Below, one piece after another: positions 14,478 through 55,703 of a stretch of 64,000 nucleotides of DNA. The DNA is taken from the IMG/VR virus record IMGVR_UViG_3300031760_003860. The stretch is one strand, 5' to 3'. The translations under genes and the position numbers were made by a program. Under the pieces are notes generated by a model. That model was not told where the DNA came from. It did no database searches and saw nothing but the letters and a program-made list of their open reading frames with translations. This stretch comes from an uncultured virus (IMG/VR IMGVR_UViG_3300031760_003860) (Duplodnaviria > Heunggongvirae > Uroviricota > Caudoviricetes). The first letter of the stretch is position 1. Each line of letters begins with the position of its first letter.

Positions 14478-16730
14478 TTAGAAATAGAAGAAGCCACCTA
14501 CCCAGTTCTTAATTCCTGCCATAAAACTTGTCAAAATATTTTCTGGGATGTCTTCAACTCTTCCTACTATTGCAGCAACTAATGTTTCTAATTTTAGCAT
14601 TAACTGGGGGCGCGTAATATCCACACCACACATAACGCTCAAATACTAATGTGTTAAGTTAGTTCGTTAGACTAACTAAATTATTGATTTAAAAATCTCA
14701 AACTATAATCACGCACATTACCGTGCAAAGCTTAAAATCCTGTCATACTAGAAAGGATATAGGTTTTTAAATCAAATAATTTCTCTATCTCTCGATAGAT
14801 GTACAGACTATATCTTCATATATACACCTGTTACCAGTGCATACATGCCTACCATTTCGTAAAGAACTATTATATAGTTCACCCTCACTTGAGGTCTACT
14901 CTACTCAGTTACTCTCCTAGATATTTCTATCTAAGATACCCTTTCGATAGTCGTTGAACTCATATCTTATAAATAAGATACTTCGCTGCGTCGATTGTCT
15001 CTATCTTTAACCTTTTTACTATACCTTTGGAGTTACCCATTGCCACTAGATGTATTACTACTCTAGTTTAGTAGTTAAAGCTTAACAAGACTTCCCCGCA
15101 ATTAGATAGGTTTTACATGAACTAATAGTTAATTCATTAAAGCCGTATTCTTAAAGAATTTAATTGGCTCTGTGGATTTATTCATAAATAAAGAAGAATA
15201 TAGCTCTCTTACTCTTACAGTACATACAATTCTTGTTGGTAAACCTTCATGCGACCAATGCCCTTCTCCACCTTTTTCAATGGATAAAGACTCAATAATA
15301 GCTAATTCAGTATTAAAGAATCCAGGGCAGAATGCTTTTATTAAGAAAGGCGATTTATATGAGTTAGGTCCTGAATATTTAGGCATAGCGAAAGCTAATA
15401 AATGGCATAGAGGAACGATACAATTGTAATAAATTGCTTCCCTCGTACCATAAGGACTAACTAATTCAACAGTAAAATCAAAACTAGCTTCATGGTCTGA
15501 ATCTTCCCAAATTTCAGGAAATGCAATATTTGCCCCTCGAACTACTTGACTTGTGGAACCAACTAATCTGCTAATCGCACTATTAGAATTATTCAATCCT
15601 GCCGCTGTAGCAAGAGAACCTAAGCCTTCTATTCCTGTTGTAACTCCTGATGACACTGCATTTACAAGTTTACTTTGACCTGTTAAAAACTGTAATTCTT
15701 TTACCATAGCTTCACCACTTTCAAATCTACTTTTCAATGAAGATTCTCTTGTTCTATTGGTAAATGTATCAGAATAAGAAGTCATCGGATTAGCATAGAA
15801 AGGGATATATGAGTATTTACCATATAGGTTTTCTTCTAATTCCTTTGCAGCCCTAGATAATGCCGACTTCTTTGCTTTTTTTGTTTTTGCTTTTTTAGCA
15901 CTAGTTTCTGTAGTAAACGTGCTTTTGTCATTCTTTTCTTTGGTGTAGTCATCTCTCCATTTATAATTCTTCCAATTATAACGCTTTAAAGCAACTTTTC
16001 CTCCTGGAGCTTTCTTGTCACCAAGACCCATATAAATAGCACACATTCTACATAACATATTTACATACTTCATGTATGTGGCATAATCTTCTTTTAATTC
16101 AAAGTATCTTACATTTTTATCGCCTTTAATGATTTTATTTATAATGCTTTTCGTATCAGCAGTTGTATCATATTCTGAATCACCAAATAATGTACTTAAA
16201 GCTTTACGCTCCTTTTTCGATACATTAGGAAGATAGTTTGCTTTTCCCGGCACAATATATACTAAAGGAGCTTCTGTCATTATACGGTTGATATATTCTC
16301 TGCCCAACTTCAATGAAGTACCTCTGTAATCTACAGATTTTGTAAAATGGTGAGGTGCCCCAAATAAATGTGGGTTACAATTTAAAAATGCAGCATCATC
16401 GTATCCTGAGTTTAAAATGGCAGCATATTTCTTAGCCATAGCTTTAGACTCTTTATTTAACTTAGCTGTTGTTTTCTTCTTAGTTTCTTTTTCTTTATTT
16501 GCTTTTGTATTTTTATTAGTTGTCTGCGATTTTGCAACTTTAAGATATTTTCCATTAGACCAACCGCCATCTTTCCACTTATACCAAGTAACTGAGCCAA
16601 CTTTTTTTGAGTCTACAACAATTCCAGAATATCCTGATTTAAGACTGCCTATTATCTTAAAACTAGTCCCAGCCCCGCTACGTTTATTTAAAACACTACA
16701 ATTAACAACTTTAGCTGTTTTATTTGCCAT
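14478..16730 (-). CDS. Virion structural protein with N-terminal SH3b, spliced: exons 16730-15132 and 14645-14478
   Basis: SH3b nearly identical to the 6591 protein. The ORF stops at the first codon (TAA) of an intron. Exon 2 reads YLSVMCGVDITRPQ...GGFFYF* in frame. Confidence 0.8.
14646..15131 (-). mobile_element. ORF-less group I intron (dispersed family copy)
   Basis: P1 ATGAAT|TAACTATTA-GTTCAT with U.G; full P/Q/R/S core; ends ACACATTAG; removal restores the frame. Confidence 0.93.
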
Positions 16731-16793
16731 AATTTTTACCTCCTTATCGTAAAATATAAGATAAAGGAAGCATCAATTTATCTGATGCTCCTT

Positions 16794-16805
16794 TATCTCA
16801 TTGTT
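16794..16805 (-). promoter_or_regulatory. AR9-type late promoter
   Basis: AACA-ATGAGA-TA on the minus strand upstream of the 16730 gene. Confidence 0.55.
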
Positions 16806-16824
16806 TTTCTGGGAAAAAATTAAA

Positions 16825-19800
16825 CTATCTACCTCTGCTAATATTCTTAGCAGTCGCATAACCCTTTCCAGCTTTTGTTGTGGTTGCTGTATTAGAAGTT
16901 GCAACGTTATTAGTTGTATTAACTACATTATTTGTATTGCTTGCCTTTATCCCAGAAATTGCTGTACGAACTTTTTCAAGTCCTTCTGTAGAATTTCCTG
17001 TATTCGTAGCGATAGCTTCTAAGAATTTAAGCATTTCTTCTAATACTTGTGTACTATCTTTCTTTTCTACTACACCAACTTGAATTCCACCATAGCCTCC
17101 AATTGGTTTACGCAACTCAATCGAATTTCTATGATAATTCATATTGCTTGTAGATGGTTTATTATTCTTTGGTATATAGTAGTTACTATAAGAGCTAACT
17201 GATAAACCGTCGCCTTTTCCACCACCAACACCCATCGCTTTTAAGATTCTAGTACCAGTAGATTCTACAGATGGTGCCCATGTTGTACTAATAGAGCCGT
17301 TATTGTTATAAGCATAGCCTTTCTTAGCTGGATTATTACCCATACCGATTGAATCGATACTCTTAGCTCCATATTCTGTATAATATTTATCAAGAAGATT
17401 TGAACTGTATATACCAAATGATTCTCCTAAATTATTAGGATTAAATGTTTTAGCACCCCCATATGGGTTAGAGTTAACCGCACCCCATCCCCATAGGTTA
17501 CCTTTATTTCGAGCAATGCTAGAAGTACCCCAACCAGATTCTAATGCGCCAATGGCTAATGGAACCAATGCAGATAAACCTGTTTTCCCTTGGGCTTCAT
17601 AGATACCTTTGGCATCTTTATTCAAATTAGCATTAGTAAATACTGAAGTTGGATGCCCGTTGATAAATGCACCCTTTAGTGCAGATGCGATCTGCTCTTG
17701 TGATGCGAATGGAATAGATTTCAAGTCTGCCGTTCTAAATGAAGAACCAGTCATATTCTTAATAGATGAGCCGGATAGATTTGTTACGGTAGATGAACTT
17801 GAACTACTACTATTATCGCTATCTTCAAAAGGATTAGATGAGAATCCCCATGATTTCCAAACACCAGAATCCAAAGCATCATCAAATATAGATACAACTC
17901 TATCTAAAGCTGTCGCCGATTCATTACTACTTGAATCAGAACTATTAATTCCGGAGAAATCGGATGTACCATCGTAATTAGGACGACCATACCCAAGAAT
18001 TTTACTTGTAGCAAGGGCGTAACTCTTTTCAGCAACACCTCCACCATTATCTACTACACCAGCACCAACTGATGTATTTCCTTCTACAGTGTATACTTTT
18101 CCGCTATCAACATTTGTTACAATACCTACATGGTTTGCACCTGCATGTCTAGAACCAGAAAAGAATATAATATCACCAGGTTGAGGATTTGAAGTAGTAA
18201 ATTGGTTTTTATTCTTAAATGCTCTCATCATTCCATCAGCAGAACGTGTTAAACTCAATAAAATACTTGTCGCTTTATTCTTATTTTTTCCGGCTGCTAT
18301 ATAGAAGCACCAAGAAACGAATGAAGCACACCAATAGTTTCCATTTGAACCAAACACATCTCTTTCGTATTTTGTATAATTTGAGCTACCAGCATTACCT
18401 GTCTTACTGTCTAAGTTGTTATTGGATGCTTTTTCTACATAACCAACTTCATTCTTAGCTACAGCAATAACATCGGTAGCTGTAAAATTGTTTCCACCCT
18501 TTCCACCAAGAACTCTACTCATTCTTACTGTACCTCGACCACCATTAGTGAATGACCAAGCTGCATTTGTAGAATTAACTAAATCTTTAGCTGAGTATTT
18601 TCCTGAGTATTGCTTTCCTCTAGGGTCGTTTATGATATAGTTACCTGCTTTATCTTTTCCAACTGCTACGACATAATGTCCAGCATTTGTATAAGGTGTA
18701 CCGTTACCGCCTCTACCAGATAATAATACAGGTCCATTCGCTATCTGCGAATCAAGTGCCTTTTGCGTTGGTTTAATATTGATAGCAGAACTCAAACCAT
18801 ATTGGCTTGCTGTATCTGAAACGAAATTCCAGTTTGTTCCTGTACTATCATTGTAACCTTTTGCTTTTGTATAATCTGCAATTTGTTTAGGATTAACATC
18901 TCCACGCATACCTTTAACGATCATAGCCATAGCTGTAGGTCCACAACCATTATCTGCTAGGGTACCACCATCATTGGCACTATACGAAGTATTACCCCAT
19001 CTTGCATCTTTTTGTGAGAAGTAAGGGAAGTTATTAGCTTCGTCTCCTTTCCCTCCTCCAATTCCAAAGAATTTTCCTTTTCCTCTACCGCCTGTTCCTT
19101 GTCCAACAGCAGTAACTCCAGAAATATCTTCATTGATTGTTTCACCTTTACCAGAAATCCAACTTGTAAATGAGTCCCAAGCATTACTTACTGTATCTTT
19201 TGCACTACTCCATGCACTCGAAATTTTATCTTGGATTTTATTGAACGCATCACTCATTCCAGATTGTTTCTTAATATCGGCTTTGTACGTCAATAAAGGT
19301 TTATATTTTTCATTGAACTCTTCGTCACTAATTCCAGTTTCAAGAGGACTATGTGTTGCACTACAGTGTGTCCAGCCATTTTTCTCTCTAATATAGTAAG
19401 AACCATCTGGAGATATATAACCTTCAAATGTAGATGATGAGAAAAAGTCTACTACTGCAGTCTTGGCAGAATTTAGTTTGCCAGCTAGATAACCTCCAAT
19501 TCCCTTTTCTTTAATCTCTGCAGTTAAAGCTGAAAATTTCTCGGATACTTTTGAACCAATTGTTTTAAAAGCCCCACCAACAGCTTTAAGACCTTTAGAA
19601 AATGCTTTTGCTGATTTTGAACCAATATTAGCAATTCCTGAACCAGCTTTTTCCAAAACATTTTTCTCAACTGTAACCGTCTGTTCTGTTAATGTAGGAA
19701 TAATATCTGTAAGGTCATTTATACTAATATTCTCTGATAGTAAACTTCCTGTGCTAGAATAATAAGAAACGTTTCCTTTGTTGATTACGTAATAGTTACC

Positions 19801-30724: not shown

Positions 30725-33700
30725 TTATTTATCGTATATCTCTTTTAACCTATCTTTTAACCCCATAATGATTTTATATCCAAACATAGTAATCAGGATA
30801 CTTGGTGTTTTACGAGCGTTGATAGATAAAGGTGCTAAAGCTAAAGATATCTCCTCATCAGGTCTATTGATGGTATAAGGTTCATAACTTTCTGGAATAA
30901 CATCTCCTATAGTTCCTTTCAAAGCTGTAAAAAACATTACATTCACATGATTCGTTACTTCATGCAGTTCTCTTATGAACTTCCCTAAGTCTCCTTAGGA
31001 TATTAGACTATATCTTCCTTATTATAACTTTTACCATTATAATAAAGCCTCCCATTTCGTAAAGGACCAATTTCGTCCACCCCACTTGGGTCTACTCTAC
31101 TCGCTTCTTCACTTAAGTCTTTCTCTTAAGCTATGCTTTCGATAGTCGTTGAACTCATATCTTATCATTGTAAGATACTTCGCTGCGTCGATTGCCTCTA
31201 CCTATAAACTTTTTACCATACCTCAGAAGTTACTCCTTGCCACTAAGTATGTTACCATCTTAGTTTGGTATTTATAGTCTAACGAGACTTTCCCGCAATT
31301 AGGAAGGTTTAACGTGACCAATCGCGTTTTAGTCACCTTATCACCGATACTACAAATATCTCTATATTTTATATAGAAAATGATAAGTACTCCATCGTTT
31401 ACTTTATTTCCTTTTATAATACCGTCTTTGGTTTCAATTTTATGGTCTGGCTCTGATACCAACATACCACAGCGATATACATCGCTACCTTTTTTATCAT
31501 ACTTCTTTAATAAAGCTTTCTTTGCTTTCACAGAAGACCAATAATCACCAACGATTTTCTGTAAAGAAGGTGATAACTCTGATAATTCAGAACCAGAGTA
31601 TACTTTAATTCCCTCGATAACACCACTATATTTTGCTTTAATAGGTGTTTTACCAAATGACTTAACTTCTTCTTTCAACTCTTCACCGATATTACCTAAG
31701 AGTTTATTCAAAGATTCTTCTTCGAAAGAATTTTCAAATACCATAAGTTCATCACCTAGTAATACTCTATCTCCTTCTTTAACCATTTTATCTACTGTAG
31801 CATTCTTACCTAATACTACAGGCACTTCCATTACTACTTCAGTAGCCATATCATTAGCAGCTTTAGAAGTAATGAATGTAGAGTCCTCAAAAGTAGAGTA
31901 CTCTTGCATAACAGCAATCTTTTCTAACGCTCCGATATTAAACTTATTACCAAATAATGTATTAGAAAAGAATTTACTATCATAAGCTAAGATATCATCT
32001 TTATCGAACTTGTCTCCTACTTTTAAATCATAGATTAACTGATTGGATAAGAAAAATCCTCCTGCACCATTCTTGTCAATCGTCTTAGAAATGTCAATTG
32101 CTTTAGTATAAGCAACTTCTCCTTTAGGCTGGTATTCTACTATCATCAAACCTAACTTTTCGTTGATTTCTTTAACAACGCCTTTTTCTTCTGCCGTTAC
32201 AACGAAGTCGTTAGATAAATGATATTGAATAACCTGCTCTGAACCATTTGAAATCAATACCGGAGATGCTTTTTCTACAGGAACAACATGCTTTGACTGT
32301 TTAACTGCCCGATTGGTATTCACATGAGTCGTTACTTCATGCAGTTCTCTTATGAACTTCTCTATATCACTATAGATGTCTAGACTATATCTTCATCTCT
32401 ATATACTGTTACCATATATAGAGAGCTTCCCATTTCGTTATCACTTGATAACTACTCTACTCAGTTACTCTCTTAGATATTTCTATCTAAGATACCCTTT
32501 CGATAGTCGTTGAACCTTACTCAAAAAAATAAAAAAAATAATGCCCGTTTATACTTCATCTCATTGAGATGTCTCACCAAAACGGAGCCGAAAGGTTCGA
32601 TTTACATTGGTAGCACATATGTACCACCAATGGCACTATAATCCCTATGTCACCATAGGGGGTTGCCCCACGCTTCCTCTCCTTCTTTAAGGAGTCTTCT
32701 ACCTATCACTAGGTACTAAAAGGCACCACTGGTCAAATAAATGATCAGCTGAATGTCATCTAATGCTATTAGACTTTATTCACAATAATAATATATACTT
32801 ATATATTTATATTAAACTATTTTGAGTATTGGCTGCTGATTGTCCTCGAAGGAGTTCCCAGCAATTAAGGAAGTTTGTAGTATATGTCACCATATACTGC
32901 CACTACTAGTTAATGGCTGTTCTTGTTGTGTCATCGCGTGTTGCTCCCAAAGGAGAAAGTAATTCTCCTGGTGTTAATAAGTTAACATCTTTTAATTTAT
33001 CTAATTCATCTTCATGTAAATCCATATAACCACGAGCATTTGTGATGGTAGGCTCCAGTGTTAGGGACCGGACAACACCACAATTCATGTCTATTGTATC
33101 TTCCCACAGGTCGTTAATCTGTAGAGTTCTCTTATGAACTTCTCTATATTGCTATAGACGATGAGACCATATCTTCATCTCTATATACTGTTACCATATA
33201 TAGAGAGAAACCCTTTTCGTTATCACTTGATAACTACTCTACTCAGTTACTCCTTACTATATTTCTATAATAAGTACCTTTTCGATGGTCGTTGAACGTT
33301 CCTCTTATTAAGAGGCTTCGCTGCTGATTGTCCTCGAGGGAGTTCCCAGCAATTAAGGTTTATTTGTAACTATTATCACTAATAGTTGCCCCAACATGTT
33401 CTAGGGCTAGTCGACATGCCGATTACACCTAACATCGAGCTATCATATGAACGTTTCTCTAATGTATATGCGTCCGATAAGTTCATACCAGCAGGTCCTT
33501 TTGGTGTACAAGCATGTAACTTTTCTGCTTCTGTCATAGGATTTAACTTTGAATAATTTTCTACAATCTGATTCTGTAATACATTCTTAATGACAATATC
33601 CTGCGGTATTGACATCTTGACTGGATTATTACTATATGCAGTATTCTTATATCTCAAATAAGCATCGGCAATCGCCTCATATAAGAATGTGACTACAATC

Positions 33701-37344: not shown

Positions 37345-37393
37345 TCCTTACATAATAAAAGAAGGTTTGAACTAATAGATTCGCCTTCTTTTT

Positions 37394-38400
37394 TGTAAAT
37401 TATTTCCATTTATTTTTTATGAGAAGTTATTTTTATTATTTTATTGCTCTATTGTCCAAATATAGGTACGATATAAATAAATTCATAAAAAGTTCATTTT
37501 ATTATAAAATATCTCTAACATAGTAGTAATAAAACATTAGCCCGAAGGGGCAAAGGTGAAACGACTAGAAAGATAGGAATAGAAGAAAAATAAATATAAT
37601 TGCAATTACTTTTAATTAAATTGATTATAATTAGCATGCCTATTATAATTTCTCTTTATTATACTATATTATATTATAATATCCCAAGTGAATTTTTTTA
37701 TTTACTTGGGATATTTTTTTTGATTAATAGATGAATTTTAATATTTTTTACCAATTCTATATTTTGTATATTAAATATATTATACCAAAAATATAAAAAT
37801 GGGAATAATTATTACTGTAAATTATTTCCATTTATTTTTTATGATAAGTTATTTTATCATTTTATTGTTCTATTATCCAAATATAGGTATGATATAAATG
37901 AATTCATAAAAAGTTCATTTTATTATAAAAAATGTATAACATAGTAGTAATAAACAATGCCCCGAAGGGCGCATTGTTTATAATTCCCCGGAGGGGAACC
38001 CGAACGGGGAATTATCAAAGGGAGCTCCGGAGGAGCGACGAGCGGAACGAAGTGGAGCGGAACAGAAGAAGCGGGAGCATACAAGATGGAAGGAGAAGAA
38101 AGAAAAGAAGAGAAGAAGTAGGAATAGGAAAAATAGAAATATAATTATATAAATTAAAATTATATGAATTACAATTATGAATTTATATATTTACCATTTA
38201 ATTTATATTGATTATTATTTTATCATATATTATATATGCTTAATATAGTATATATAATATATTATTATATTGCAAAATGAAAAATTTTTAATTAGTTTGG
38301 ATAATATTTGACAGATTAGTAGAAGAATTTTAATATTTCTTTTACTAATCTGATTATTTTTGTTAAAAATTGTATATTAAATATATTATACCAAAAGTAA
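37394..38400. repeat. Imperfect ~155-bp direct repeat (37394-37550 and 37816-37970) plus a shorter second repeat in a very AT-rich non-coding region; possible replication origin
   Basis: TGTAAATTATTTCCATTTATTTTTTATGA...AACATAGTAGTAATAAA...CCCGAAGGG occurs twice. TTGTATATTAAATATATTATACCAAAA occurs at ~37763 and ~38370. Confidence 0.75.
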
Positions 38401-39129
38401 GAAAAAGAGATAAAATTGATAAAATTTAGAGAAAAATAATAAAATTTACCAATAAATGTAAAAAGTATAGAAATACTAAAAATCTTATTTCCCAATATAA
38501 GGAGACTATTAAAAGTCCAATTAAAAATAAAAATTGATAAACAAAATTATAATAAACATTCCTGTGAAGGAATGTTTATTATACATTCTATTGCTTTTTA
38601 TCCAAGATATGTTGGTTAATAGAAAGCAATAATTTTATATAATTTATGCTATATAATAAACTAGAAATAGTTTATTGACAATCCATAAAATTCATAAATG
38701 TCTTGAGCTAGTTTGGTGAATACTCAACTAGCTCCCTTTCTATTGTAAATTCACTCCATATATAAATAATTTAATTATATAAAGAAAGAGTGATATAATT
38801 TACCAAAATAACTAATATTGCAATTAAAGTATCTACCTACATGGGTATACACTTCTATTATCAATTTAGATGATATATAAGAGAAACTTCTTAAATTATT
38901 TGAATTTACTTTAACTGGAATATTTAATCTTAGGGCAGGAGAAAAAATAGATATGGGATTATTAGTGAGAATTCTATGTTCCGACCAGAATATAACAGCG
39001 TCTTTTTATTTACAGATAACGATGGGGCAGAGTATTATTTGAACCTATATACATTTAGACATACTAGTGATGATAAAATTATTTTATCATTCAAACAGTT
39101 TCAATTAAATTGAATTTTAATATTTGCTT

Positions 39130-39450
39130 AACATAATAGTATATCCATTATGCTGAGTGGATATGACTGATTACTCCACTTCATTACCACCAGAGATGGA
39201 TAATACACTATCTTTGGTGGTAACCCCTCATTTTTAATTTATATAACATAGTAGTAAATACTTATTTCTCCATTGATACAAGTATTTACTTCCCATCCAT
39301 TAGAGAGTAGTCCCATAACTCTCTAATGGATTCTATTTTTAAAATTAAATAAGCATTAACATTTATATGAAACCAAGAAATTTGTACAACTTATATCATT
39401 TGTCTAGTAAGCCATTTTCTACATCGTGGTTTACTGGGCATCTTATTTTT
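39130..39450 (+). ncRNA. Three tandem promoter-hairpin-terminator small-RNA units
   Basis: AACA-N6-TA/TG at 39130, 39245 and 39358, each followed by ~90 nt ending in a hairpin plus T-run. Confidence 0.5.
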
Positions 39451-39468
39451 CTATCAATGAAATAAAGA

Positions 39469-39476
39469 TATATTAT
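39469..39476 (+). promoter_or_regulatory. Early-type promoter motif TATATTAT
   Basis: TATATTATTT.A.TGATATCGGT is shared with 48439; TATATCAT variants at 47771 and 56131; each precedes an accessory gene. Confidence 0.55.
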
Positions 39477-39530
39477 TTTATTGATATCGGTTAACAACTA
39501 AGTTATAAAATACTAAAGGAGGAATCAGTT

Positions 39531-40433
39531 ATGCTTGATTATAACAAAAGAATTGACGCAAGTCAAGGTCAAAAAAGAATTACAGTAAAGGATTTAATTG
39601 AATATTTAAAGACACTTAATAAGGATGCAAAAATAAGTGTTTTAGGAGACCCATGCTTTTATATCCACGTAGAACAGGATGGCTCAGAAGTCATTTTTGA
39701 CGATAGCCCTCTTGAAGATGAATATCCGATGTCTTACTCTATGAGTGATTATTTGGAAAGAAATAAAGCGGAGGAAAAGAGTAAGAAAGAAGCAAATGAT
39801 TTATATGAAAAGTCCATTAAAGCTCAGGCTGAGATTCCAGTAGATGAAAATAAACAGGAAATTCAGAGCGCTGGTCCTTATATGGAAGCATACTTAAAGC
39901 GTCATTTCACGAAAAAAGCATCAGATGACCTTAAAGAAATGCTAACAGGAAAGGTTAATCTAGATACATTTAAAGAAGCTTACATAGGAATTGGTGATTG
40001 CAGAGTTCTATTTGAAGCAAAAATGCATGAGCATCTAAATAGAATAGTTGTAATTGCATCTCCAGAGCTTCTCTGTATCGCTTTAGTGGTTAAGCATAGA
40101 GGGCGACTAAAAGTTATCCCTCAATGCTCTAATAATCCCTCATATTTACAAGAGGATAAGATATTGTCTATTAATGGAATTAATTTCCTAGTTAATAATA
40201 CAATACATTCAATGACTTCAGATAGATTTGTGATTATAGATATATTTAAGTTATCTGAATTAGCAAAAATGGTAATTCCGGATGCGATTGAGTATCTTAT
40301 GAACCGGAAGGAATACGATGCTAAAAACGATGATGAAGCTACCAGAGTAAAAACTGCATATAATTTTATTATAATGAACTCTAAAGGTAAATATGGACCT
40401 TTAGTACCATTAGTTTTACCAGTAAAGAATTAA
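39531..40433 (+). CDS. Hypothetical protein
   Basis: 300-aa ORF with RBS AGGAGG. Confidence 0.75.
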   Translation: MLDYNKRIDASQGQKRITVKDLIEYLKTLNKDAKISVLGDPCFYIHVEQDGSEVIFDDSPLEDEYPMSYSMSDYLERNKAEEKSKKEANDLYEKSIKAQAEIPVDENKQEIQSAGPYMEAYLKRHFTKKASDDLKEMLTGKVNLDTFKEAYIGIGDCRVLFEAKMHEHLNRIVVIASPELLCIALVVKHRGRLKVIPQCSNNPSYLQEDKILSINGINFLVNNTIHSMTSDRFVIIDIFKLSELAKMVIPDAIEYLMNRKEYDAKNDDEATRVKTAYNFIIMNSKGKYGPLVPLVLPVKN

Positions 40434-40726
40434 AATAAAACTGTATGTTAAACAGAATAAAAAGAGAGTGAATTAAAACTCTCTCTTTTTAAATATAGAA
40501 AGGAGGGGAAAGAACACTTATGAAAAGATGCCTGGCAGAGCAGAAATTTTGCCAGAATATTTTACCTAATAAAAATAAAAGATAACAGGTCTATCGTCAA
40601 AGCTAATAATGAAAGAATTATTATGACAGATGCTGAAGAGTATAATGGAACACATATTAATACTTTCGTTATTTAGTGATATTAAGAGATAAGACTTGCC
40701 ATATTAAGAAAGGAGGAATGATACAA

Positions 40727-41209
40727 ATGAGTAGACTTCCAGAATATTTTATTTATAGCGATGGTGCATGTAAAGGTAACCCGGGACCAGGTGGTTATGG
40801 GACTCTTGTGCTAACTATGAAAGAGCTAGACTTTACAGAAGTGGGACGCTTCGCTAGAGGTTATTTCGACACTACAAATAATAGAATGGAATTGATGGGA
40901 GTCATAAGAGGACTCATAGAAATTAAAAAACCATCGACTGTAGTTGTAATTACGGATTCTAAATATATCGTTGATTCCATCAATAAAAGATGGTTAAATA
41001 ATTGGTTGAGGAATGGTTGGATAACAAGCACCCAGAAACCAGTTAAAAATAAAGATTTGTGGTTAGAACTACTAAAACAGATGAAAAATCATAATGTTAC
41101 GTTTCAATGGGTAAAGGGTCATGCACAGAATGAGTATAACAATACTTGTGATAAGTTAGCTGTAGAAGCATCCCATAACCCAGATAGTATTGACATTATA
41201 GTGAATTAG
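40727..41209 (+). CDS. rnhA: Ribonuclease HI
   Basis: IYSDGACKGNPGPGGYG, TTNNRMEL, TDSKY, PVKNKDLW, WVKGHA..N..CDKLA. Start could instead be ATG 40718. Confidence 0.96.
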   Translation: MSRLPEYFIYSDGACKGNPGPGGYGTLVLTMKELDFTEVGRFARGYFDTTNNRMELMGVIRGLIEIKKPSTVVVITDSKYIVDSINKRWLNNWLRNGWITSTQKPVKNKDLWLELLKQMKNHNVTFQWVKGHAQNEYNNTCDKLAVEASHNPDSIDIIVN

Positions 41210-42820: not shown

Positions 42821-43696
42821 ATGGACAAAAATAGAGACGTAAAAGAAAATAATATTTACAATTATACTGAAGTTGAATCTATAAGAAGAGGAAGTGTCTA
42901 TTATGTAAAAAGAAATGTTGACTGTAATTTTTATAGTGGTACAGCTATAACTTTAAAGAATAAACGTCCTTTTATAGTACTATCAGAGCACAGAGATAAT
43001 ACCTATTCTAGAATTGTCACATGTTGCCCGATCATTACTAGAGAAGAAAAAGGTAATGAGCATTTTGAGTATGTAAATTTTGTAGATTCGCGTGGTAAGC
43101 ACGTTATGGCAAACCTGTCTCAAATAACATGTATTCCTATAGAGCATGTTAAGGGTTATATTTATACAGTTCCTAAAGAAAAAATGGATGAGATTGATAG
43201 ATTACTAGCTCGTCGTCTTTGTTTAGAGAATTATATTGAAACTCTGGTCAAGCAGTATCTGGAAGATGTTATAGGTGTTTCAATTACCCATTCAATCGAA
43301 TTAGATATGAATGTAAGAAAGCAAGAACCTCTTTCAACTAAACAAGTAAAAGATATGATATATAGTAAACAATTCCAGCAATCTGAAGAAAAGATGCGGA
43401 AGCTTCTAGAAATACCAGAAAGCACATACTGTGAGCCCGAAGAGGATGCTCATATTTGTGATATGAAACTTAACCATATTGATGCATCTGAATTAAAAGA
43501 TATAGAGCCAGAACGAAAATCTACAAATAATTGGACGCCAGAAAAGATGCAAGAAGTTGTCGATTACAGAGCTTCTCATACATTAGAAGAAACAGCAGAA
43601 AAATATCATATTAAAAATAACTCCATGAATACAGTACTATGGAAAGCGAAGAGGAAGTATGGTATAACTGCATCAAGTAACAATAATCTTCATTAA
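42821..43696 (+). CDS. PemK/MazF-like endoribonuclease domain fused to a C-terminal HTH-like repeat
   Basis: IRRGSVYYV...KNKRPFIVLS...IVTCCPI...LSQITCI...MDEIDRLL. Confidence 0.7.
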   Translation: MDKNRDVKENNIYNYTEVESIRRGSVYYVKRNVDCNFYSGTAITLKNKRPFIVLSEHRDNTYSRIVTCCPIITREEKGNEHFEYVNFVDSRGKHVMANLSQITCIPIEHVKGYIYTVPKEKMDEIDRLLARRLCLENYIETLVKQYLEDVIGVSITHSIELDMNVRKQEPLSTKQVKDMIYSKQFQQSEEKMRKLLEIPESTYCEPEEDAHICDMKLNHIDASELKDIEPERKSTNNWTPEKMQEVVDYRASHTLEETAEKYHIKNNSMNTVLWKAKRKYGITASSNNNLH

Positions 43697-44500: not shown

Positions 44501-47500
44501 ATGGAAGTAATTAAACGTGATGGTACTAGCGTCGATTATGACGAGACTAAAATTATGAAAGCTATTCAGGGTGCGAATAGTGAAATGACAAAAGAGGAAG
44601 ATAAGTTAAGCGTAGATGGAATTGCTAACTTAATAGAAGATTTTAATAAAATAACGACTCCTCTTCATCGGATTGAAGTAGAGGAGATTCAGGATATCGT
44701 GGAAGAATTACTCATGCGCTATAAGAAATATAAATTAGCCAAAGCTTATATTATTTATAGATATATCCATGCGGAAAAGCGTTCAGGGAATGATGTTATT
44801 TCTAGAGTAAAAACTCTTATTGATGGAATCAATACAGAGTTAAACGAAGAGAATTCTAACAAGAATTCCTTTATCAACAGCGTGCAAAGAGATTATATGG
44901 CTGGAGAAGTTTCAAAAGAAATTACAAAAGAACTTCTTCCAGAAGATATTTACCGAGCATGGAAAGAAGGTTTAATCCATTTCCATGACTCTGATTATTT
45001 CGCTCAGTATATGACTAATTGTTGTTTGATAGCATTAGATGATATGCTTGAGAATAGCACCGTAATCAGTGATACTTTAATAGAAACCCCTCATGCATTT
45101 TCTACCGCATGTACAATCGCAACACAGATTATTGCACAGGTTGCATCTTCTCAATACGGCGGTCAATCCATATCATTGGCTCATTTGGCACCTTATGTGG
45201 ATAAGAGTAGACAGAAGTTTACAGAGTTTATAACTCGTGTTTATGGTAAAATGGGAGAGAAAGAAAAGGAATTGCTTGATATTCTTATGCAGTATGAAAT
45301 ATCAAAAGGTGTTCAGACAATTCAGTATCAGGTGCAGACATTATTAACAACAAATGGTCAGGCTCCATTCTTAACTTTATTTATGTGGATTAATGAAGTT
45401 CCAGAAGGACAAACAAGAGATGACTTAGCGTTATTAATAGAAGAAGTATTAAAACAGCGTATTTTAGGAGTTAAAAATGAGAAAGGTATTTATGTATCAC
45501 CAGCCTTCCCTAAGCTCATTTATGTTACAGATGAAAATAATATTTATCCGGATAGAAAATATTGGTACTTAACGGAATTAGCTTGTAAATGTACAGCAAA
45601 GAGATTAGTTCCAGATTATATTTCTGCAAAGAAAATGGCTGAATACAAAGAGGGTAATGTATTTCCAGTGATGGGATGCGTGGAAGGTAATGAGATTATT
45701 TCATATAAATATCATGGGAAACTTTTCGTAGAATCATTTAAGCGAATGTGGGAACGTTTGTCTGAGGATTTCCCAATAAAACACCAATTTTCAGAAGATA
45801 ATCCTAATTTATATATGGATTTGACTGATGTTGAAATTTATGATACAGAAAAAGGTTTTGTGAATACGCAAAGAATTATTCGTAATAAGAGTAATGATTG
45901 GGTTAAAGTTCACATGTCAAATGGTCGAATTTTATTATGTACATCTGTTCATCCTTTTGATACTGTAAATAGAGGTAGAGTTTTGGCAAAAGATTTGCAG
46001 ACAGATATAATTAGAATTAATCATTCACAAGTTACAGGAGATGCTCAAAACAATTGGAATGAAGATTTAGCTTGGGCTTATGGTGTTTTATTATGCGATT
46101 CTTCATATGCAGGTACTCCTATGGGAACATTTGCCATTAACGGGGAAGATGATATCATTGACCATTTGGTTGAAGTTATAGAGAATAATTATAATATTAA
46201 ATGCGAAGTTCGAGAACAACACAGAGGAGTTAAAGGAAATTATAAAGAAGTTGTTATGCCTTCTAGAGAATTACGATATGATCTATGTAGATTTTTTGAA
46301 GGTATCGCAAAAGTAGACAGGCATATTCCGAATATACTGTTTTCTATGAAAGAATCAGTAAGATTAGCGTTTTTAGCTGGAATGATTGATGCTGATGGTT
46401 ACATTAACGCTACTAGTTCTTTAAGTAAAATTCAAATAAGCTCAACAAATAAAGAGCTCGCTTTGCAACAAATGGCATTAATACAGAGTTTAGGTATGCC
46501 AGCGTATCAGTATGAAAATCATTATAGTAAAAAACATGCTGATAAAATTAGGTATAGAATTGAAGCTGTTCCAAGTGATGATATTATAGATTATCTAATC
46601 TGTAACAAGAAAAACTCTTTATTTAAAAATAATGAACGATGTCGTTCAGTAGATAGTATAAAAGCCAAAGCAGCAATTAAATATATAGAAGTTATTGATA
46701 ATTACGAAGATTATAGTTATGACGTTACAACAGAATCTGATCATTTTGAGGTTAGCGGAATATATAGTCATAACTGTAGAAGTAATCTTTCTCCTTGGAA
46801 AGATGAAAATGGAAATTATAAATTCTACGGGCGCTTTAATCAAGGTGTTGTAACTATCAACTTAGTTGATGTCGCATGTTCATCAAATAAAGATATGGAA
46901 AAATTCTGGCAAATCTTTGATGAAAGATTAGAGCTTTGTCATAGGGCATTATTATGTAGACATGAAAGATTAAAAGGTACTACCACAAAAGTTGCTCCTA
47001 TCTTATGGCAATATGGTGCATATGCACGATTAGGTAAAGATGATGTCATTGATGAGTTATTGTATAATGGCTATTCTACAATTTCTTTAGGATATGCAGG
47101 ATTGGCAGAGTGTGTTTACTATATGACTGGCAAGTCACATACATCAGACGAAGCAAAACCATTCGCTTTATCTATTATGCAGCATATGAACGATATGTGC
47201 AATAAGTGGAAAGAAGAGCATGAGCATCATTTAGCATTTTCTTTATATGGTACTCCATTAGAGTCTACAACATACTCTTTTGCGAAAGCATTGAGGAAAA
47301 GATTTGGTGTTATCGAAGGAGTTACCGATAAAGATTATATAACAAACTCTTATCATGTAAAAGTAACAGAGCAGATTGATGCATTTAGTAAATTGGCAAT
47401 TGAGGCAGAATTCCAGCATTTATCAACTGGTGGTGCTATTAGTTATATTGAAGTGCCTAACATGCAGAATAACATTGAAGCTATTGAATCTGTTGTTCAA

Positions 47501-47749
47501 TTCATGTATGAAAACGTTATGTATGCGGAACTTAATACAAAATCAGACTATTGTCAAGTTTGTGGTTATGATGGGGAAATTCAGATTGTTGAAGATGATA
47601 ACGGTAAATTGATATGGGAATGCCCGAATTGTAAAAATAGAGACCAATCTAAGATGAATGTGGCAAGACGTTCATGTGGATATATCGGAACCCAATTCTG
47701 GAATCAAGGAAGAACACAAGAGATTAAAGAACGCGTACTTCATTTATAA
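44501..47749 (+). CDS. nrdD: Anaerobic (class III) ribonucleoside-triphosphate reductase with ATP cone and intein
   Basis: VIKRDG ATP cone, ENSNK, HFHD, NCCL, QYGGQS, FPKL, MG[intein]CRS, GRFNQGVVTINL, YITNSYH, C-terminal CxxC...CPNC and RRSCGYIG glycyl loop. Late promoter at 44459-44470. Confidence 0.96.
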   Translation: MEVIKRDGTSVDYDETKIMKAIQGANSEMTKEEDKLSVDGIANLIEDFNKITTPLHRIEVEEIQDIVEELLMRYKKYKLAKAYIIYRYIHAEKRSGNDVISRVKTLIDGINTELNEENSNKNSFINSVQRDYMAGEVSKEITKELLPEDIYRAWKEGLIHFHDSDYFAQYMTNCCLIALDDMLENSTVISDTLIETPHAFSTACTIATQIIAQVASSQYGGQSISLAHLAPYVDKSRQKFTEFITRVYGKMGEKEKELLDILMQYEISKGVQTIQYQVQTLLTTNGQAPFLTLFMWINEVPEGQTRDDLALLIEEVLKQRILGVKNEKGIYVSPAFPKLIYVTDENNIYPDRKYWYLTELACKCTAKRLVPDYISAKKMAEYKEGNVFPVMGCVEGNEIISYKYHGKLFVESFKRMWERLSEDFPIKHQFSEDNPNLYMDLTDVEIYDTEKGFVNTQRIIRNKSNDWVKVHMSNGRILLCTSVHPFDTVNRGRVLAKDLQTDIIRINHSQVTGDAQNNWNEDLAWAYGVLLCDSSYAGTPMGTFAINGEDDIIDHLVEVIENNYNIKCEVREQHRGVKGNYKEVVMPSRELRYDLCRFFEGIAKVDRHIPNILFSMKESVRLAFLAGMIDADGYINATSSLSKIQISSTNKELALQQMALIQSLGMPAYQYENHYSKKHADKIRYRIEAVPSDDIIDYLICNKKNSLFKNNERCRSVDSIKAKAAIKYIEVIDNYEDYSYDVTTESDHFEVSGIYSHNCRSNLSPWKDENGNYKFYGRFNQGVVTINLVDVACSSNKDMEKFWQIFDERLELCHRALLCRHERLKGTTTKVAPILWQYGAYARLGKDDVIDELLYNGYSTISLGYAGLAECVYYMTGKSHTSDEAKPFALSIMQHMNDMCNKWKEEHEHHLAFSLYGTPLESTTYSFAKALRKRFGVIEGVTDKDYITNSYHVKVTEQIDAFSKLAIEAEFQHLSTGGAISYIEVPNMQNNIEAIESVVQFMYENVMYAELNTKSDYCQVCGYDGEIQIVEDDNGKLIWECPNCKNRDQSKMNVARRSCGYIGTQFWNQGRTQEIKERVLHL
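45677..46774 (+). mobile_element. Intein with LAGLIDADG homing endonuclease (366 aa)
   Basis: Starts CVEGNE, block B CTSVHPF, LAFLAGMIDADG, ends YDVTTESDHFEVSGIYSHN|C. Inserted in the MG|CRS motif. Confidence 0.95.
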
Positions 47750-50933: not shown

Positions 50934-50935
50934 TT

Positions 50936-52091: not shown

Positions 52092-52164
52092 AATACTTAC
52101 TCCGAAGACTATAAAAAATAGTCTTCGGAGACATTATTATGAAAAATGGAAAGGATAAAATATT

Positions 52165-52695
52165 ATGGAATTAGGAAATTTGATTTTTGGAAACAGTAGA
52201 GGGGAATTTGAAATTGATAGGGATGTCTATCAGGATTTATTTGCAGAATTTTTCCGTTCGATAGGAATAGATTCATATGGTACAGTAACAAGTAAGCTTG
52301 CAAAAGTTTATCCAGAGTATATAAAAGGTTGTACTTTTGAAAATGATACATTTATAGTGCGACCATATTATTGGGGAGATGATGAAGAGATTGCATCTAT
52401 GCCAAATTTTGAGTATAAGCCAGATGAATTAAAAATATGCTGGTATAAATATATGATGCGTGATGCATATTCAAATAAAGAATTAACAGTAGATTATATA
52501 AAGGAAGTATTTGAGAATATTAGAAAGAGTCTTCCCAAATTACAGGATATCAAAATAGAAAAACCTTCAGATGAGTTGCGAAGAAAATATTTTGATTATA
52601 GGATGGAAAAGATACAAAAGAATAGTATTTATGGTGCTTTCGGATTCGGTGGTTTCCATAGAGGAGGTTTTAATAATGACGACAGAAGAAATTGA
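52165..52695 (+). CDS. Hypothetical protein
   Basis: ORF with RBS; C-terminal KNSIYG motif. Confidence 0.7.
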   Translation: MELGNLIFGNSRGEFEIDRDVYQDLFAEFFRSIGIDSYGTVTSKLAKVYPEYIKGCTFENDTFIVRPYYWGDDEEIASMPNFEYKPDELKICWYKYMMRDAYSNKELTVDYIKEVFENIRKSLPKLQDIKIEKPSDELRRKYFDYRMEKIQKNSIYGAFGFGGFHRGGFNNDDRRN

Positions 52696-52915
52696 AAAAG
52701 TTGATAAATATGTTGGAGGACTTAAGTCATCCATTGATAACATTCAGCATGTAGCTAGATTATTAAATCTTCCAGAAGAGTTAGATGAAGATGTTGATAA
52801 AATGATTGCTATACTAAAGTGTAGAGTCGAGGAAATCACTCATGCTGAAAGTAAAAAAGAATTGAAAAAACTTTTAAAATTAAAGAAAATTTTAGGAGAT
52901 GACAGTAATGAGTAG
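52676..52915 (+). CDS. Hypothetical protein
   Basis: GAGGAGG RBS before MTTEEIEK (track start 52571). Confidence 0.6.
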   Translation: MTTEEIEKVDKYVGGLKSSIDNIQHVARLLNLPEELDEDVDKMIAILKCRVEEITHAESKKELKKLLKLKKILGDDSNE

Positions 52916-53501
52916 TGCTAGGTCTTTAATAGAATCTGAAATTCTTACTGAAGGTGGCTATGCCATATTTGACCCATACACGCAAGAAGTCTATTTTGCT
53001 CCCAATAAAAAAATATTAAATAACTATATCAAAAATCCAGCAAGGAAGCATATAGATTTTATTGTAACGGAAATAAAACCCAATGAAGATATTCATGAAA
53101 CAATTCTTGGGCATCTTGGGTTCAATTATATTACTGATATTGATGGGATAGCTGTATCTCCTGAAGAAGAGGAAATGCTTTATAGTTATCCAGATGATAT
53201 AGATGAATTTGTGATGCCTTTAAAGACTTTGCATAATTACGCTTCTTATTTAAAATTAGATAAAAGTATTAGGGAGAGACTCATAGATATTACAATTCGT
53301 ATGATAGAATTTCTAAGAAAAGCCGAGTGTGAAGTGTATCCTAATAATAGTTGCGATGATTTTACGTATTTTAATAAGAGAGCTCTTATCAATCATTGTA
53401 TTGAATATCTTAATAGTGATGATATGAGAGAACAGAGACATAATAACATTACCTATATCAAACGTTTTAGATATTTTGACAAAGATAGAAAGGAGGGATA
53501 G
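52899..53501 (+). CDS. Hypothetical protein, paralog family member 1
   Basis: YAIFDPYTQEVYFA...KHIDFIV N-terminus shared with the next two genes. Confidence 0.7.
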   Translation: MTVMSSARSLIESEILTEGGYAIFDPYTQEVYFAPNKKILNNYIKNPARKHIDFIVTEIKPNEDIHETILGHLGFNYITDIDGIAVSPEEEEMLYSYPDDIDEFVMPLKTLHNYASYLKLDKSIRERLIDITIRMIEFLRKAECEVYPNNSCDDFTYFNKRALINHCIEYLNSDDMREQRHNNITYIKRFRYFDKDRKEG

Positions 53502-54024
53502 TACTATGTCTAACGATGAATGGTATATGATACTGAATAAAAAGACAGAGGATGTCTTTTATGCAGAGAACCTAGAAGATGCTACGATATTTGTGAATGA
53601 TAAAGCTCGTAAGTTCGATGATTTCATTGTCGAGAAAGTACCAAAAAAAATAATAACGAGCAGTTTAATTAATTCGATGGAAAGCCGTTCTTTAATCTGG
53701 TCTTTAGATGGTAATAGAGTGCTAGCTCCGGACGAAATAGCGGATTTTGAAAATCTCTATGACCAGATGCCGTATCTTGTTTATAAAATAAAGCATGCTG
53801 TTGAAGATTTATCTAAATTGAAATTAGAAGAAGATGTTGATATATTTGTGCGGGAAACTATGTATAAACTATATAATACATTGAATATTATATCGGACTA
53901 TGATTTCTATTGTCAAATGTGTAACGATGAAGATGATGGATATAGATGGTATGAGAATTTTAATAATGGGTATTTACTTGATACAATTATAAGGTATTAC
54001 ACAGGATGTACGGAGGGAACATGA
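53476..54024 (+). CDS. Hypothetical protein, paralog family member 2
   Basis: YMILNKKTEDVFYAE...DKARKFDDFIVEKVP. Confidence 0.7.
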   Translation: MTKIERRDSTMSNDEWYMILNKKTEDVFYAENLEDATIFVNDKARKFDDFIVEKVPKKIITSSLINSMESRSLIWSLDGNRVLAPDEIADFENLYDQMPYLVYKIKHAVEDLSKLKLEEDVDIFVRETMYKLYNTLNIISDYDFYCQMCNDEDDGYRWYENFNNGYLLDTIIRYYTGCTEGT

Positions 54025-54506
54025 GCAATTATTACGCTATTTATAATAAAACTTTAGATGAATTATATTATGCAGAAGATAAAGAAACAGCAATCGCTTT
54101 TGTACACGATAAATCACGTAATTGTAATAAATTTATTATTAAGAAAGTTCCAACAGATTTAGTTACCGGTAATGTATTAGACTATATAGCTACCCATACT
54201 GTTTCATACAGTACGGAAAGTTCTAGAGTTTTAACTTTTGACGAATATGAAGCATTTTTATATTTAGATGATTATGTATCTGATTTAGGGAAATCTTTAG
54301 ATGAAGCTTTTAGTCGCTTAATATTTCTAAAAGATAATGAATTTATTATGGATACGCTGACATCTGTTATGGATGAACTTTGTAGGGTAGCTCAGATATG
54401 TTTGTATGATACTGTTTTTGAGTTTGGTGGAGATTTGTCACTATATCTCAATGTAGATGTACTAACCACCGTTATAATAAAAAATAATAGCGGAAGACAA
54501 AAGTAG
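54006..54506 (+). CDS. Hypothetical protein, paralog family member 3
   Basis: YAIYNKTLDELYYAE...DKSRNCNKFIIKKVP. Confidence 0.7.
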   Translation: MYGGNMSNYYAIYNKTLDELYYAEDKETAIAFVHDKSRNCNKFIIKKVPTDLVTGNVLDYIATHTVSYSTESSRVLTFDEYEAFLYLDDYVSDLGKSLDEAFSRLIFLKDNEFIMDTLTSVMDELCRVAQICLYDTVFEFGGDLSLYLNVDVLTTVIIKNNSGRQK

Positions 54507-54546
54507 AGATTTCAACACTCCTATAATAAGAAAGGAGTGTTGAAAT

Positions 54547-55703
54547 ATGCCAAGACCAATAATTCGTAAAGGAGCCAAATTTGACCCAGTTGAAGTGAAA
54601 TCAATTACAAAGGTGGGTAAATTTGAACGCTCTATCGTTATTATGAATTAACTATTAGTTCATGTAAAACCTATCTAATTGCGGGGAAGTCTTGTTAAAC
54701 CATAAATACCAAACTAAGATGGTGACATACTTAGTGGCGAGGGGTAACTCCCGAGGTATGGTAAAAAGTTTATGGGTAGAGACAATCGACGCAGCGAAGT
54801 ATCTTATTTATAAGATATGAGTTCAACGACTATCGAAAGGGTATCTTAGATAAAAATATCTAGGAGAGTAACTGAGTAGAGTAGACCTCAAGTGAGGGTG
54901 AACTATTATATAGTTCTTTACGAAACGGTAGGCATGTATACACTGGTAACAGGTGTATATATGAAGATATAGTCTGTACATCTATTGAGAGATAGAGAAA
55001 TTATCGATTTAAAAATCTATATCCTTTCTAGTATGACAGGATTTTAGGCTTTGCACGGTAATGTGCGTGATTATAGTTTGAGATTTTTAAATCAATAATT
55101 TAGTTAGTCTAACGAACTAACTTAACACATTAGGATAAGCAGAAGATTGCTTTTATTAAGAGATTAGAAACAATTGTGCGTACATCTATGGAATATAAAG
55201 ATTATATCAAATATTTACGGGAGTTTATCAATATGGAAGAATGTTCTTTCTATAAGAACGTTACGAATAAGTATAGTAAGAAAATCTCCATAGAGATTCA
55301 CCATGAGCCGTTTACATTATTTGATATTTGTGATGTTATTTTATCAAAGTGGCTAAAGAAGGATTGGAATCTAGACCCTTATTTAATGGCTGAAGAGGTT
55401 ATGAAATTACATTATATGAACTTGGTTGGTTTAGTACCGTTATCAATAACAGTTCACCAATTAGTTCATGATGGAAAATTATTTGTTCCGCTACAAAATG
55501 TTAAAGGAGACTTTAATGATTTCATTAGATCATATGAAGAATTCATGAGTCCGGAATTGAAATCTAAAATCAAAGCAAAGAAGATTCTTTCTGAAGAAGT
55601 TGTTGATACATCTGTACTAGATAAGAAGTTTATTTACTTAAAAGTAGAAGGATGGGAATTACCTAGTATTGTATCTGAAGATTTGGAAGAATCTGACGAT
55701 TAG
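54547..55703 (+). CDS. HNH-like protein, spliced: exons 54547-54648 and 55134-55703
   Basis: RBS AAGGAG. Exon 1 MPRPIIRK...SIVIMN joins DKQKIAFIKRLETIVRTSMEY. Motifs IEIHHEP...LVPLSITVHQLVH. Paralog of 63040..63714. Confidence 0.8.
54649..55133 (+). mobile_element. ORF-less group I intron (dispersed family copy)
   Basis: P1 ATGAAT|TAACTATTA-GTTCAT; P/Q/R/S core; ends ACACATTAG; nearly identical to 14646-15131 outside the P5 extension. Confidence 0.93.

Follow-up and report, generated by a model that had tools for sequence, protein, structure and literature searches.

Introns without open reading frames in an AR9-like jumbo phage: probable derivatives of a TnpB-encoding IStron family

How do near-identical group I introns that carry no open reading frame (ORF) come to sit in unrelated genes of one phage? 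The question is raised by a 64,000-nucleotide (nt) stretch of DNA from an uncultured virus (IMG/VR record IMGVR_UViG_3300031760_003860), hereafter the window, which is part of an AR9/PBS1-like jumbo phage from cattle gut. Two full copies of the intron (A and B) and one partial copy (C) interrupt a virion gene, a gene of unknown function and a polyphosphate kinase gene (ppk). We consider it probable that all three are ORF-less ('mini') derivatives of a family of TnpB-encoding IStrons in AR9-like jumbo phages, which would splice at the RNA level and move as whole units. In such an IStron, a group I ribozyme at the 5' end would be followed by tnpB, the gene for an IS200/IS605-family RNA-guided nuclease, looped out by an AU-rich stem, and by a structured 3' end that would carry the 3' splice site and presumably serve as the omegaRNA scaffold.

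Copy A (14646..15131, minus strand) is 486 nt long and copy B (54649..55133, plus strand) 485 nt, and they score 66.2 and 72.7 bits, respectively, against the Rfam model RF00028, for which the gathering score is 50. The score of copy B was obtained when its region was scanned alone; in both scans of the whole window it was missed. At the gathering threshold, Rfam gave group I introns at 33142-33413 and 30983-31367, and the E-value mode added 14783-15166 (66.2 bits) and 32360-32922 (41.3 bits). A family alignment of six introns showed that 42 of the 97 predicted pairs keep pairing through two-sided changes. In a blastn search of copy B against the window, copy A was 93.0% identical over 486 columns and copy C (1..454, plus strand, with its 5' end outside the window) 81.4% identical over 456 columns; a further match was obtained at 31317-31005 in an RNA polymerase gene (81.4% over 318) and a weaker one at 5856-5918. 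The longest ORF in copy A or B is 52 amino acids (aa) and lies on the antisense strand. Thus, the sequence-only reading of this DNA was right to describe near-identical ORF-less group I introns in unrelated genes.

The identity between the copies is mosaic. In the coordinates of copy B, copies A and B agree at 50/50 positions from 1 to 50, 62/85 from 51 to 135 and 114/115 from 136 to 250, and at 98/104, 25/27, 51/52 and 52/52 in the segments that follow. One 85-nt stretch accordingly holds 23 of the 34 differences, with 390 of 400 positions identical outside this patch, and the patch of copy B matches the RNA polymerase intron at 30983-31361 in 77 of 85 positions. The final 131 nt of copy C are nearly identical to those of copy B (127/131) and copy A (130/131), whereas farther upstream identity falls to about 83% and copy C has 47 inserted nt. 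The earlier description of an identical start of about 45 nt therefore held, with the length corrected to 50 nt, and so did that of a near-identical 3' domain shared with the ppk copy, which measures about 131 nt rather than about 170 nt.

Both full copies directly follow the hexamer ATGAAT and open with an in-frame TAA. The internal guide sequence GTTCAT of copy B (54658..54663, plus strand; intron positions +10 to +15) pairs with ATGAAT to form P1, with a U.G pair at the splice site, and the corresponding guide of copy A lies at 15122-15117, all in agreement with the sequence-only reading. In gene A, which encodes a virion structural protein (phrog_20401 at 1.9e-44), exon 1 (15132..16730, minus strand) comprises 533 codons and ends in ATGAAT (15137-15132), and exon 2 (14478..14645, minus strand) adds 55 codons and a stop. 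In gene B, exon 1 (54547..54648, plus strand) has 34 codons and ends in the target hexamer (54643-54648), and exon 2 continues from 55134 to 55703 (plus strand). Gene B had been called HNH-like, a label that neither Pfam nor PDB sequence searches supported; its only match is to phrog_12252, of unknown function. When the gene B exons were joined in silico (54648 to 55134), the product aligned without a break with AR9 g242 and with a paralogue in the window at 63040-63714. Likewise, joining the gene A exons (15132 to 14645) gave an unbroken alignment across the junction with LY01 WRM43545. The homologues AR9 g242 and LY01 WRM43545 are uninterrupted at the sites of copies B and A, respectively, and the other gene A homologue, Machias_090, is interrupted at a different site, near residue 405 as compared to 533 in gene A. 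For copy C, the PP_kinase_C_1 match in the exon that follows (455..1315, plus strand) begins at the first residue of this exon, at profile position 78. This intron-split, phage-encoded polyphosphate kinase (455-1315, plus strand, and upstream) carries PP_kinase_C and PP_kinase_C_1 domains.

The similarity to the Rfam model ends at the P9 hairpin, and the mini-IStron copies extend 136-137 nt beyond it. In the predicted fold of this tail, a 20-bp AU-rich stem closes the structure, two hairpins lie inside it, and a terminal hairpin is followed by 11 nt that end in G; the folding z-scores are -4.6 and -3.8, and none of 200 shuffles was as stable. The 5' strand of the closing ('IR') stem lies at 54998..55018 (plus strand; z = -4.6) and its 3' strand at 55081-55101, and in full-length relatives the stem loops out tnpB. 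Between copy B and one such relative (L007), a change from a G-C to an A-U pair is visible by eye in this stem. The last 104 nt of copy B (55030..55133, plus strand), here called the right-end module, contain the 3' strand of the stem and the terminal hairpin (55102-55122), and they finish with the tail UAACACAUUAG, where the 3' splice site lies.

The right-end module connects the window copies to TnpB. A scan of metagenome contigs with a 20-mer from the intron tail gave 13 loci, of which 6 are family members (L001, identical to L005; L002, identical to L006; L007; and L011). The other seven (L003, L004, L008, L009, L010, L012 and L013) were dropped as chance 20-mer matches in GC-rich DNA. Exact scans of IMG/VR with two intron stretches and a scan of genome contigs gave no match, and TnpB-based locus searches of viral contigs and genome contigs gave no confirmed locus. 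In L002, L006, L007 and L011, the match to the window copies is confined to the last 104 nt (95-100% identity), directly after the stop of an ORF ending in ...IDRDVNAAYNCFKYGLKEIIA*, with the motif ...IDRDVNAAYN.... The L007 ORF (440 aa) matches the Pfam family Cas12f1-like_TNB at 1.3e-11 and, below the cut-off, OrfB_IS605 at 1.7e-6, and it also matches the ISDra2 TnpB chains in PDB (2.4e-7). Its alignment with ISDra2 shows the RuvC motifs GIDLG, VVDE and DRDVNAA and two CxxC zinc-finger pairs. The L002 ORF has the same Pfam matches, and the tnpB genes of L007 and L002 are themselves mosaic. An intron core upstream of the L007 ORF (L007X) is 75% identical to copy B, and a shorter derivative within L007 (L007Y) keeps only the last 52 nt; for the elements in L002, L006, L007Y and L011, the sequence seen excludes the 5' ends.

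The boundary of the tnpB cassette is precise. The L002 junction reads ...CCTTTCT|AACAAATTCG...AGGAGG...ATG and the mini junction ...CCTTTCT|AGTATGACAGG, and the position of the cassette in the relatives corresponds exactly to 55029|55030 of the window. Contigs from the metagenome runs X2, X3 and X6 leave the copy B sequence at 55030 into a tnpB leader of the L002 type, and contigs from X16 and X3 enter it at 55030 from a tnpB 3' end (...GCTTAG). These loose ends join the tnpB leader and 3' end to B-like sequence, which shows that full-length elements share samples with the minis. The shared 104-nt end and the CCTTTCT| junction thus suggest that the window copies represent the same element minus the tnpB cassette, and they probably arose by deletion of tnpB. 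Since the window copies contain no ORF above 52 aa, and hence no IS200/IS605- or IS607-family ORF, which is found only in the relatives sharing the 3' end, we class them as ORF-less IStron derivatives. The right-end module is presumably a remnant of the omegaRNA scaffold.

We next consider natural variation at the copy B locus, which is present, at least in part, in 20 of 24 listed runs from 16 studies, mostly of cattle gut. Contigs from four runs were aligned to it: X2, X3, X6 and X16, of which X3 and X6 are DNA and X16 is RNA. The depth over the intron in these runs is 10-20 times that of the flanks, a value that sums contigs of all organisms and hence is not a copy number. One contig of X3 (10,072 nt, depth 9) and one of X6 (8,511 nt, depth 221) skip exactly from 54648 to 55134, corresponding to the 485-nt unit (TA..AG). 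Relative to the window, 13 letters are changed in the flanks of the former and 23 in those of the latter, and the empty gene B alleles are otherwise 98-99% identical to the window sequence. The contigs of X2 read 24 nt into copy B (to 54672) and out of its last 28 nt (from 55106). An assembly artefact was ruled out by X2, from another study, which crosses both intron-exon borders, and by the empty allele in X3 and X6. Run X3 holds the empty gene B allele together with both forms of the element, and run X2 the occupied allele. The exact presence or absence of 485 nt in natural DNA shows that copy B is polymorphic and has been recently mobile. This agrees with the recent activity proposed in the sequence-only reading, which had called for a search for intron-less alleles; they were found in two other cattle-gut studies. 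The element is bounded by the splice sites and is inserted or removed exactly as a whole, without target duplication.

Family members also occupy sites elsewhere. In three contigs of X3, other upstream sequence is joined to ...TATGAAT|intron, and two further 3' exons, absent from the window, were seen in X2 and X6. The intron-less gene B paralogue has an empty site (63625..63636, minus strand) that reads …TTAGAT|AATGAT…, and a contig of X16 joins the family right end to 30 nt, of which 28 match the paralogue at 63630 in a comparison made by eye. L005 is a full ORF-less copy, 91.5% identical, inside a family B DNA polymerase gene. The family thus interrupts the virion gene, the phrog_12252 gene, ppk, the DNA polymerase gene (L005), a NAD ligase gene (L011) and other genes. 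A second, different group I intron (L005 2834-3268; 39.8 bits) lies 250 nt past the mini-IStron in the same DNA polymerase gene.

The target of copies A and B is unlikely to be shared by chance. ATGAAT occurs 128 times per 128,000 positions on both strands of the window, which puts the chance of a second copy at the same hexamer at about 1 in 1000. The pairing of flank and guide was examined in 13 introns (copies A and B, L005, L007X, four other introns of the window and five Staphylococcus phage elements), using the last 12 exon and first 32 intron bases. The cognate P1 comprised 4-8 bp in all 13 introns, and of the 152 non-cognate combinations 6 reached 5 bp and none reached 6 bp; the 5' splice sites outside the family were placed by the P1 rule itself, so that their cognate values are partly circular. 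Within the family, the flank and guide pairs are ATGAAT/GTTCAT, CTGGAT/GTCCAG and AAGGAT/GTCCTT. The P1 hairpin (first 17-25 nt) varies in sequence and length by site, and the intron is conserved from P3 onwards. The co-variation of flank and guide expected by the sequence-only reading was thus seen, although selection on P1 together with gene conversion would give the same pattern. Much of it would indeed be explained by gene conversion between resident introns and by selection on the P1 of each site. These two processes leave copies A and B unexplained, which share both P1 and flank.

The following scheme would account for these observations. The tnpB cassette is missing from the window copies exactly between 55029 and 55030. 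Each copy would excise itself from the RNA, with P1 formed by ATGAAU and GUUCAU and the 3' splice site after ...CAUUAG, and splicing would keep all three host genes (virion, phrog_12252 and ppk) intact. As DNA, the 485-nt unit comes and goes precisely, without target duplication, and it has entered several sites that end in bases pairing with the guide. The minis may be moved by a transposase acting in trans, encoded by the phage genome outside the window or by the host. Alternatively, the TnpB of full-length copies may use the remaining scaffold of the minis and cut empty alleles in co-infecting phages.

Similar elements are known, and IStrons, ORF-less IStrons and phage-borne IStrons have all been reported. 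We compared the architecture with the accessible parts of PMC4227781, 10.1101/2023.11.20.567912 and the review PMC13565253, in which the IStron architecture is already described. Group A IStrons, such as CdISt1 of Clostridioides difficile, likewise consist of a 5' group I ribozyme with an IS200/IS605-family TnpB towards the 3' end (PMC4227781, PMC13565253). Judged from the same parts of PMC4227781, the splice sites also bound the unit, a U.G pair forms at the last base of the 5' exon and the guide pairs with a short target on the 5' side. The target is not duplicated, the host genes are unrelated and TnpA is frequently missing (PMC4227781, PMC13565253). The present family differs from group A, as far as that group is covered there, by its jumbo phage host and by window copies without any ORF, and also by its long AU-rich closing stem, which is a trait of group B (PMC4227781). 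It is the sole group B trait present here: group B elements insert after GG, with a 5' exon ending in G and a 3' end of CGG (PMC4227781), whereas our family has flanks that end in AT and a 3' end of TAG.

A precedent in the accessible text of PMC4227781 is the ORF-less BcISt1 of emetic Bacillus cereus, in which the ORF has likewise been removed cleanly, the ribozyme and looping stem have been kept, and the location is intragenic. Unlike the present family, BcISt1 inserts after GG, ends in CGG and splices after G. Its ORF-less copies occupy orthologous loci and were interpreted as vertically inherited (PMC4227781), whereas the minis described here are spread over no fewer than four genes, and one is polymorphic. 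CbISt3 and CbISt4 of the Clostridium botulinum phages c-st and D-1873 are likewise IStrons on phage genomes, but as described there they belong to group B (IS607-type), are single-copy and carry ORFs (PMC4227781). As compared to a classical homing group I intron, the window copies contain no ORF and the homologues AR9 g242 and LY01 WRM43545 are uninterrupted. In phage Twort, related ORF-less group I introns occur at several sites, including genes with multiple introns. We know of no link between the Twort introns and TnpB. The PATE and MITE derivatives of IS200/IS605 are non-autonomous and retain only the transposon ends, without a ribozyme. Measured against such elements, the family has a right-end hairpin 11 nt from the end and, at the left end, only the P1 hairpin, which varies by site; no Y1 transposase was found in the searched frames.

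Elements with TnpB are also present in cultured AR9-like jumbo phages. Machias (MW349128) and LY01 (OR836606) contain intragenic elements that encode only TnpB and are located after ..GGAT or ..AGAT with a matching guide. We obtained 4 TnpB matches in Machias, 6 in LY01 and none in AR9, and the L007 TnpB matches those of Machias and LY01 over the full length at 24-25% identity. Compact group-I-like cores precede five of the TnpB genes (L018-L022); four of these elements follow CGGAT and one TAGAT, their guides are GTCC or GTCT, and they end in ...CAG. In the annotation of the gene A orthologue Machias_090, a 'transposase' lies within a virion gene of two exons. The elements in Machias and LY01 differ from our family in that the ribozyme is far more compact and the right end is about 190 nt long and unrelated in sequence. 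This GC-rich structured sequence extends from the tnpB stop to the 3' splice site and was found at 5 places, only beside tnpB, while each of the two genomes, Machias (W01) and LY01 (W02), has about 30 copies of a compact intron-core stretch roughly 85 nt long. The core stretches often cluster, with 3-4 within 1 kb, as in LY01 at 40411-41066 and 176236-176750. RF00028 gave 10 matches in Machias, 21 in LY01 and 18 in AR9, and most copies of the core stretch fall below the Rfam cut-off. At the TnpB loci of Machias and LY01, Rfam gave no match at E<=0.1, and the compact cores were recognised only by their similarity to other copies. MarsHill-like Staphylococcus jumbo phages have been reported to contain many variable introns and a reverse transcriptase (RT) of unknown role, and the available main text of the Machias genome paper mentions introns and nowhere the word 'transposase' (10.1101/2020.12.14.422802). 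No description of IStrons, or of TnpB within introns, in jumbo phages was found in the literature search, which covered few subscription journals.

Several observations weigh against the classification of the window copies as mini-IStrons. The sequence-only reading had suggested a search for RT, TnpA, TnpB or serine recombinase genes, and none was found among the 156 frames of at least 65 aa in the window (47 + 109), nor did tblastn with the L007 TnpB give a match there. A Y1 transposase was not found in any of the three cultured relatives (Machias, LY01 and AR9) or in 22 frames of related contigs. The link to IStrons proposed in the sequence-only reading is supported by the 104-nt 3' end shared with the post-TnpB sequence of related contigs, while the enzyme acting in trans was not found in the window frames. 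The right-end module matched no Rfam family. The 5' flanks vary (ATGAAT, CTGGAT, AAGGAT and TTAGAT), with only ..AT constant, and the variable P1 hairpin is unlike that of a unit transposing intact from its left end. As given in the accessible part of PMC4227781, the targets of group A are TTGAT, ATTAT and TTTAT and its 3' end is TCAG, as compared to RRAT flanks (TGAAT in two copies, TGGAT and AGGAT) and TTAG in our family. The joint from 54648 to 55134 also occurs in a 186-nt contig of the RNA run X16, but this does not represent evidence of splicing because the same joint exists as DNA. Finally, since the right end of the Machias and LY01 elements is found only beside tnpB and the core about 30 times, the ORF-less introns of these phages are not obviously decayed IStrons.

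The last observation also bears on the direction of change. It is conceivable, though we think it unlikely, that the ORF-less copies are original and that the tnpB cassette is nested in the P9-distal loop like a homing endonuclease gene, with ..TTTCT as its target-adjacent motif (TAM) and a guide that matches AGTATGACAGG...; TnpB would then home into empty introns, and the minis would be targets instead of decay products. The identical boundary at 55029|55030, despite ribozyme cores that are only about 75% identical (L007X and copy B), fits this view, as does the greater conservation of the junction-adjacent 104 nt relative to the cores, which is expected from co-conversion. A 6-bp hairpin of different sequence, seen by eye past the junction in both L002 and L007, and the 5 places with TnpB and right end among the roughly 30 core matches per genome in Machias and LY01 point the same way. 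However, the known omegaRNA comprises the 3' region of the element and the 3' flank, at least in the accessible part of PMC13565253, which here fits a scaffold formed by the 104 nt and a guide taken from the 3' exon. Moreover, in the Staphylococcus phage elements the structured sequence separates the tnpB stop from the 3' splice site, the unit that is naturally present or absent is the whole intron, and no locus was seen both with and without the cassette.

Spread at the RNA level appears more doubtful still. Here, the excised intron would reverse-splice into RNA that matches the guide (ATGAAU), an RT and recombination would fix the DNA copy, and the link to TnpB would be incidental. Both full copies and the further contigs of X3 follow the full 6-7 nt guide complement, the pairing in the 13-intron comparison is specific to the cognate flanks, a DNA transposase was not found in the window, the cultured relatives or the related contigs, and an RT has been reported in MarsHill-like phages (10.1101/2020.12.14.422802). 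Yet no RT is present among the window frames, and the pairing is not discriminating, since any working copy must pair with its flank, apart from the partial circularity of the cognate values. The transposase of IS200/IS605 also picks its target by guide pairing at the left end. Reverse splicing is neither supported nor excluded by these data. We regard it as very improbable that there has been no recent transposition at all and that old resident introns have been homogenised downstream of P1 by gene conversion between paralogous introns. Gene conversion would agree with the mosaic identity of copies A and B, with the patch of copy B that resembles the RNA polymerase intron, with the mosaic tnpB genes of L007 and L002, and with the site-specific P1 in L005, L007X and the RNA polymerase introns. 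It accounts for the mosaic but not for the occupancy of new sites: copies A and B share the P1 hairpin and guide (50/50 nt) as well as the hexamer flank, for which the odds are about 1 in 1000, and nearly identical alleles exist that lack precisely copy B. Taken together, derivation of the minis from TnpB-encoding IStrons remains the probable explanation.

An extension of the IStron explanation, which we put forward as a speculation and hold to be unlikely, concerns the choice of target. A P1 guide of 4-7 nt would both define the splice site in the RNA and choose the insertion site in the DNA (or RNA), and the family would retarget itself by changes in the guide (GTTCAT, GTCCAG, GTCCTT and others) in phages that lack their own transposase. 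Driven by the TnpB of a few full-length copies, the minis would enter empty alleles at co-infection via the retained scaffold. If true, one virus would harbour both helper and dependent forms of an RNA-guided intron parasite able to retarget itself.

Other introns in the window have different tails. One RNA polymerase subunit gene contains three group I introns (30983-31367, 32360-32922 and 33142-33413, minus strand), all of which share a post-P9 tail, AAGTTCATAAGAGAACT..., ending in ..TGAAT, unlike the TnpB-type tail. In six contigs of X6, a consensus at 0.6 agreement gave a tail start, GTTCATAAGAGAAC, that is similar to that of the RNA polymerase introns and is joined to a stretch resembling a ribosome-binding site. 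A further group-I-like intron lies at approximately 5772-6470 (plus strand), after the sequence ...NGGDYDG of the RNA polymerase beta' N-terminal part, inside the catalytic motif DxDGD. Its P1 is GACGGT/GCCGTC and it contains the core match at 5856-5918, with no Rfam match at E<=1; a possible short exon (..ENMRVSTNEAIQTLFML..) near this intron was noted by eye only. A decayed GIY-YIG-like frame at about 5960-6200, likewise suggested by eye only, was rejected as Pfam gave no match.

Among the remaining features of the window are pieces of a multisubunit RNA polymerase (phrog_2986, 14872 and 38251) and a product of 4109 aa with C39, CHAP and glucosaminidase domains. Among cultured phages, AR9/PBS1 and the Staphylococcus jumbo phages are closest, with proteins 24-45% identical to those of the window. 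The anaerobic ribonucleotide reductase gene NrdD (44501-47749, plus strand) is split by an intein with a LAGLIDADG endonuclease domain, and a 291-aa protein (42821-43696, plus strand) has a PemK/MazF-like toxin domain (1.6e-9). A stretch of about 2.2 kb (37345-39530) has no ORF of 80 aa or more on either strand; its short frames have no Pfam match and the stretch itself has no Rfam match.

Through the mini-IStrons, TnpB-type RNA-guided nucleases become linked to the plasticity of introns known from AR9-like jumbo phages. The mini-IStrons provide a natural case in which full-length and mini IStrons co-occur, and in which an occupied site and its empty allele are found in the same habitat. With these defined sequences, it becomes testable whether a nuclease-less intron borrows TnpB in trans, which TAM is used by a TnpB with an AT-rich target, and how new sites are reached without TnpA. 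For the annotation of phage genomes, the results imply that a structured 3' tail on an ORF-less intron may mark an IStron remnant.

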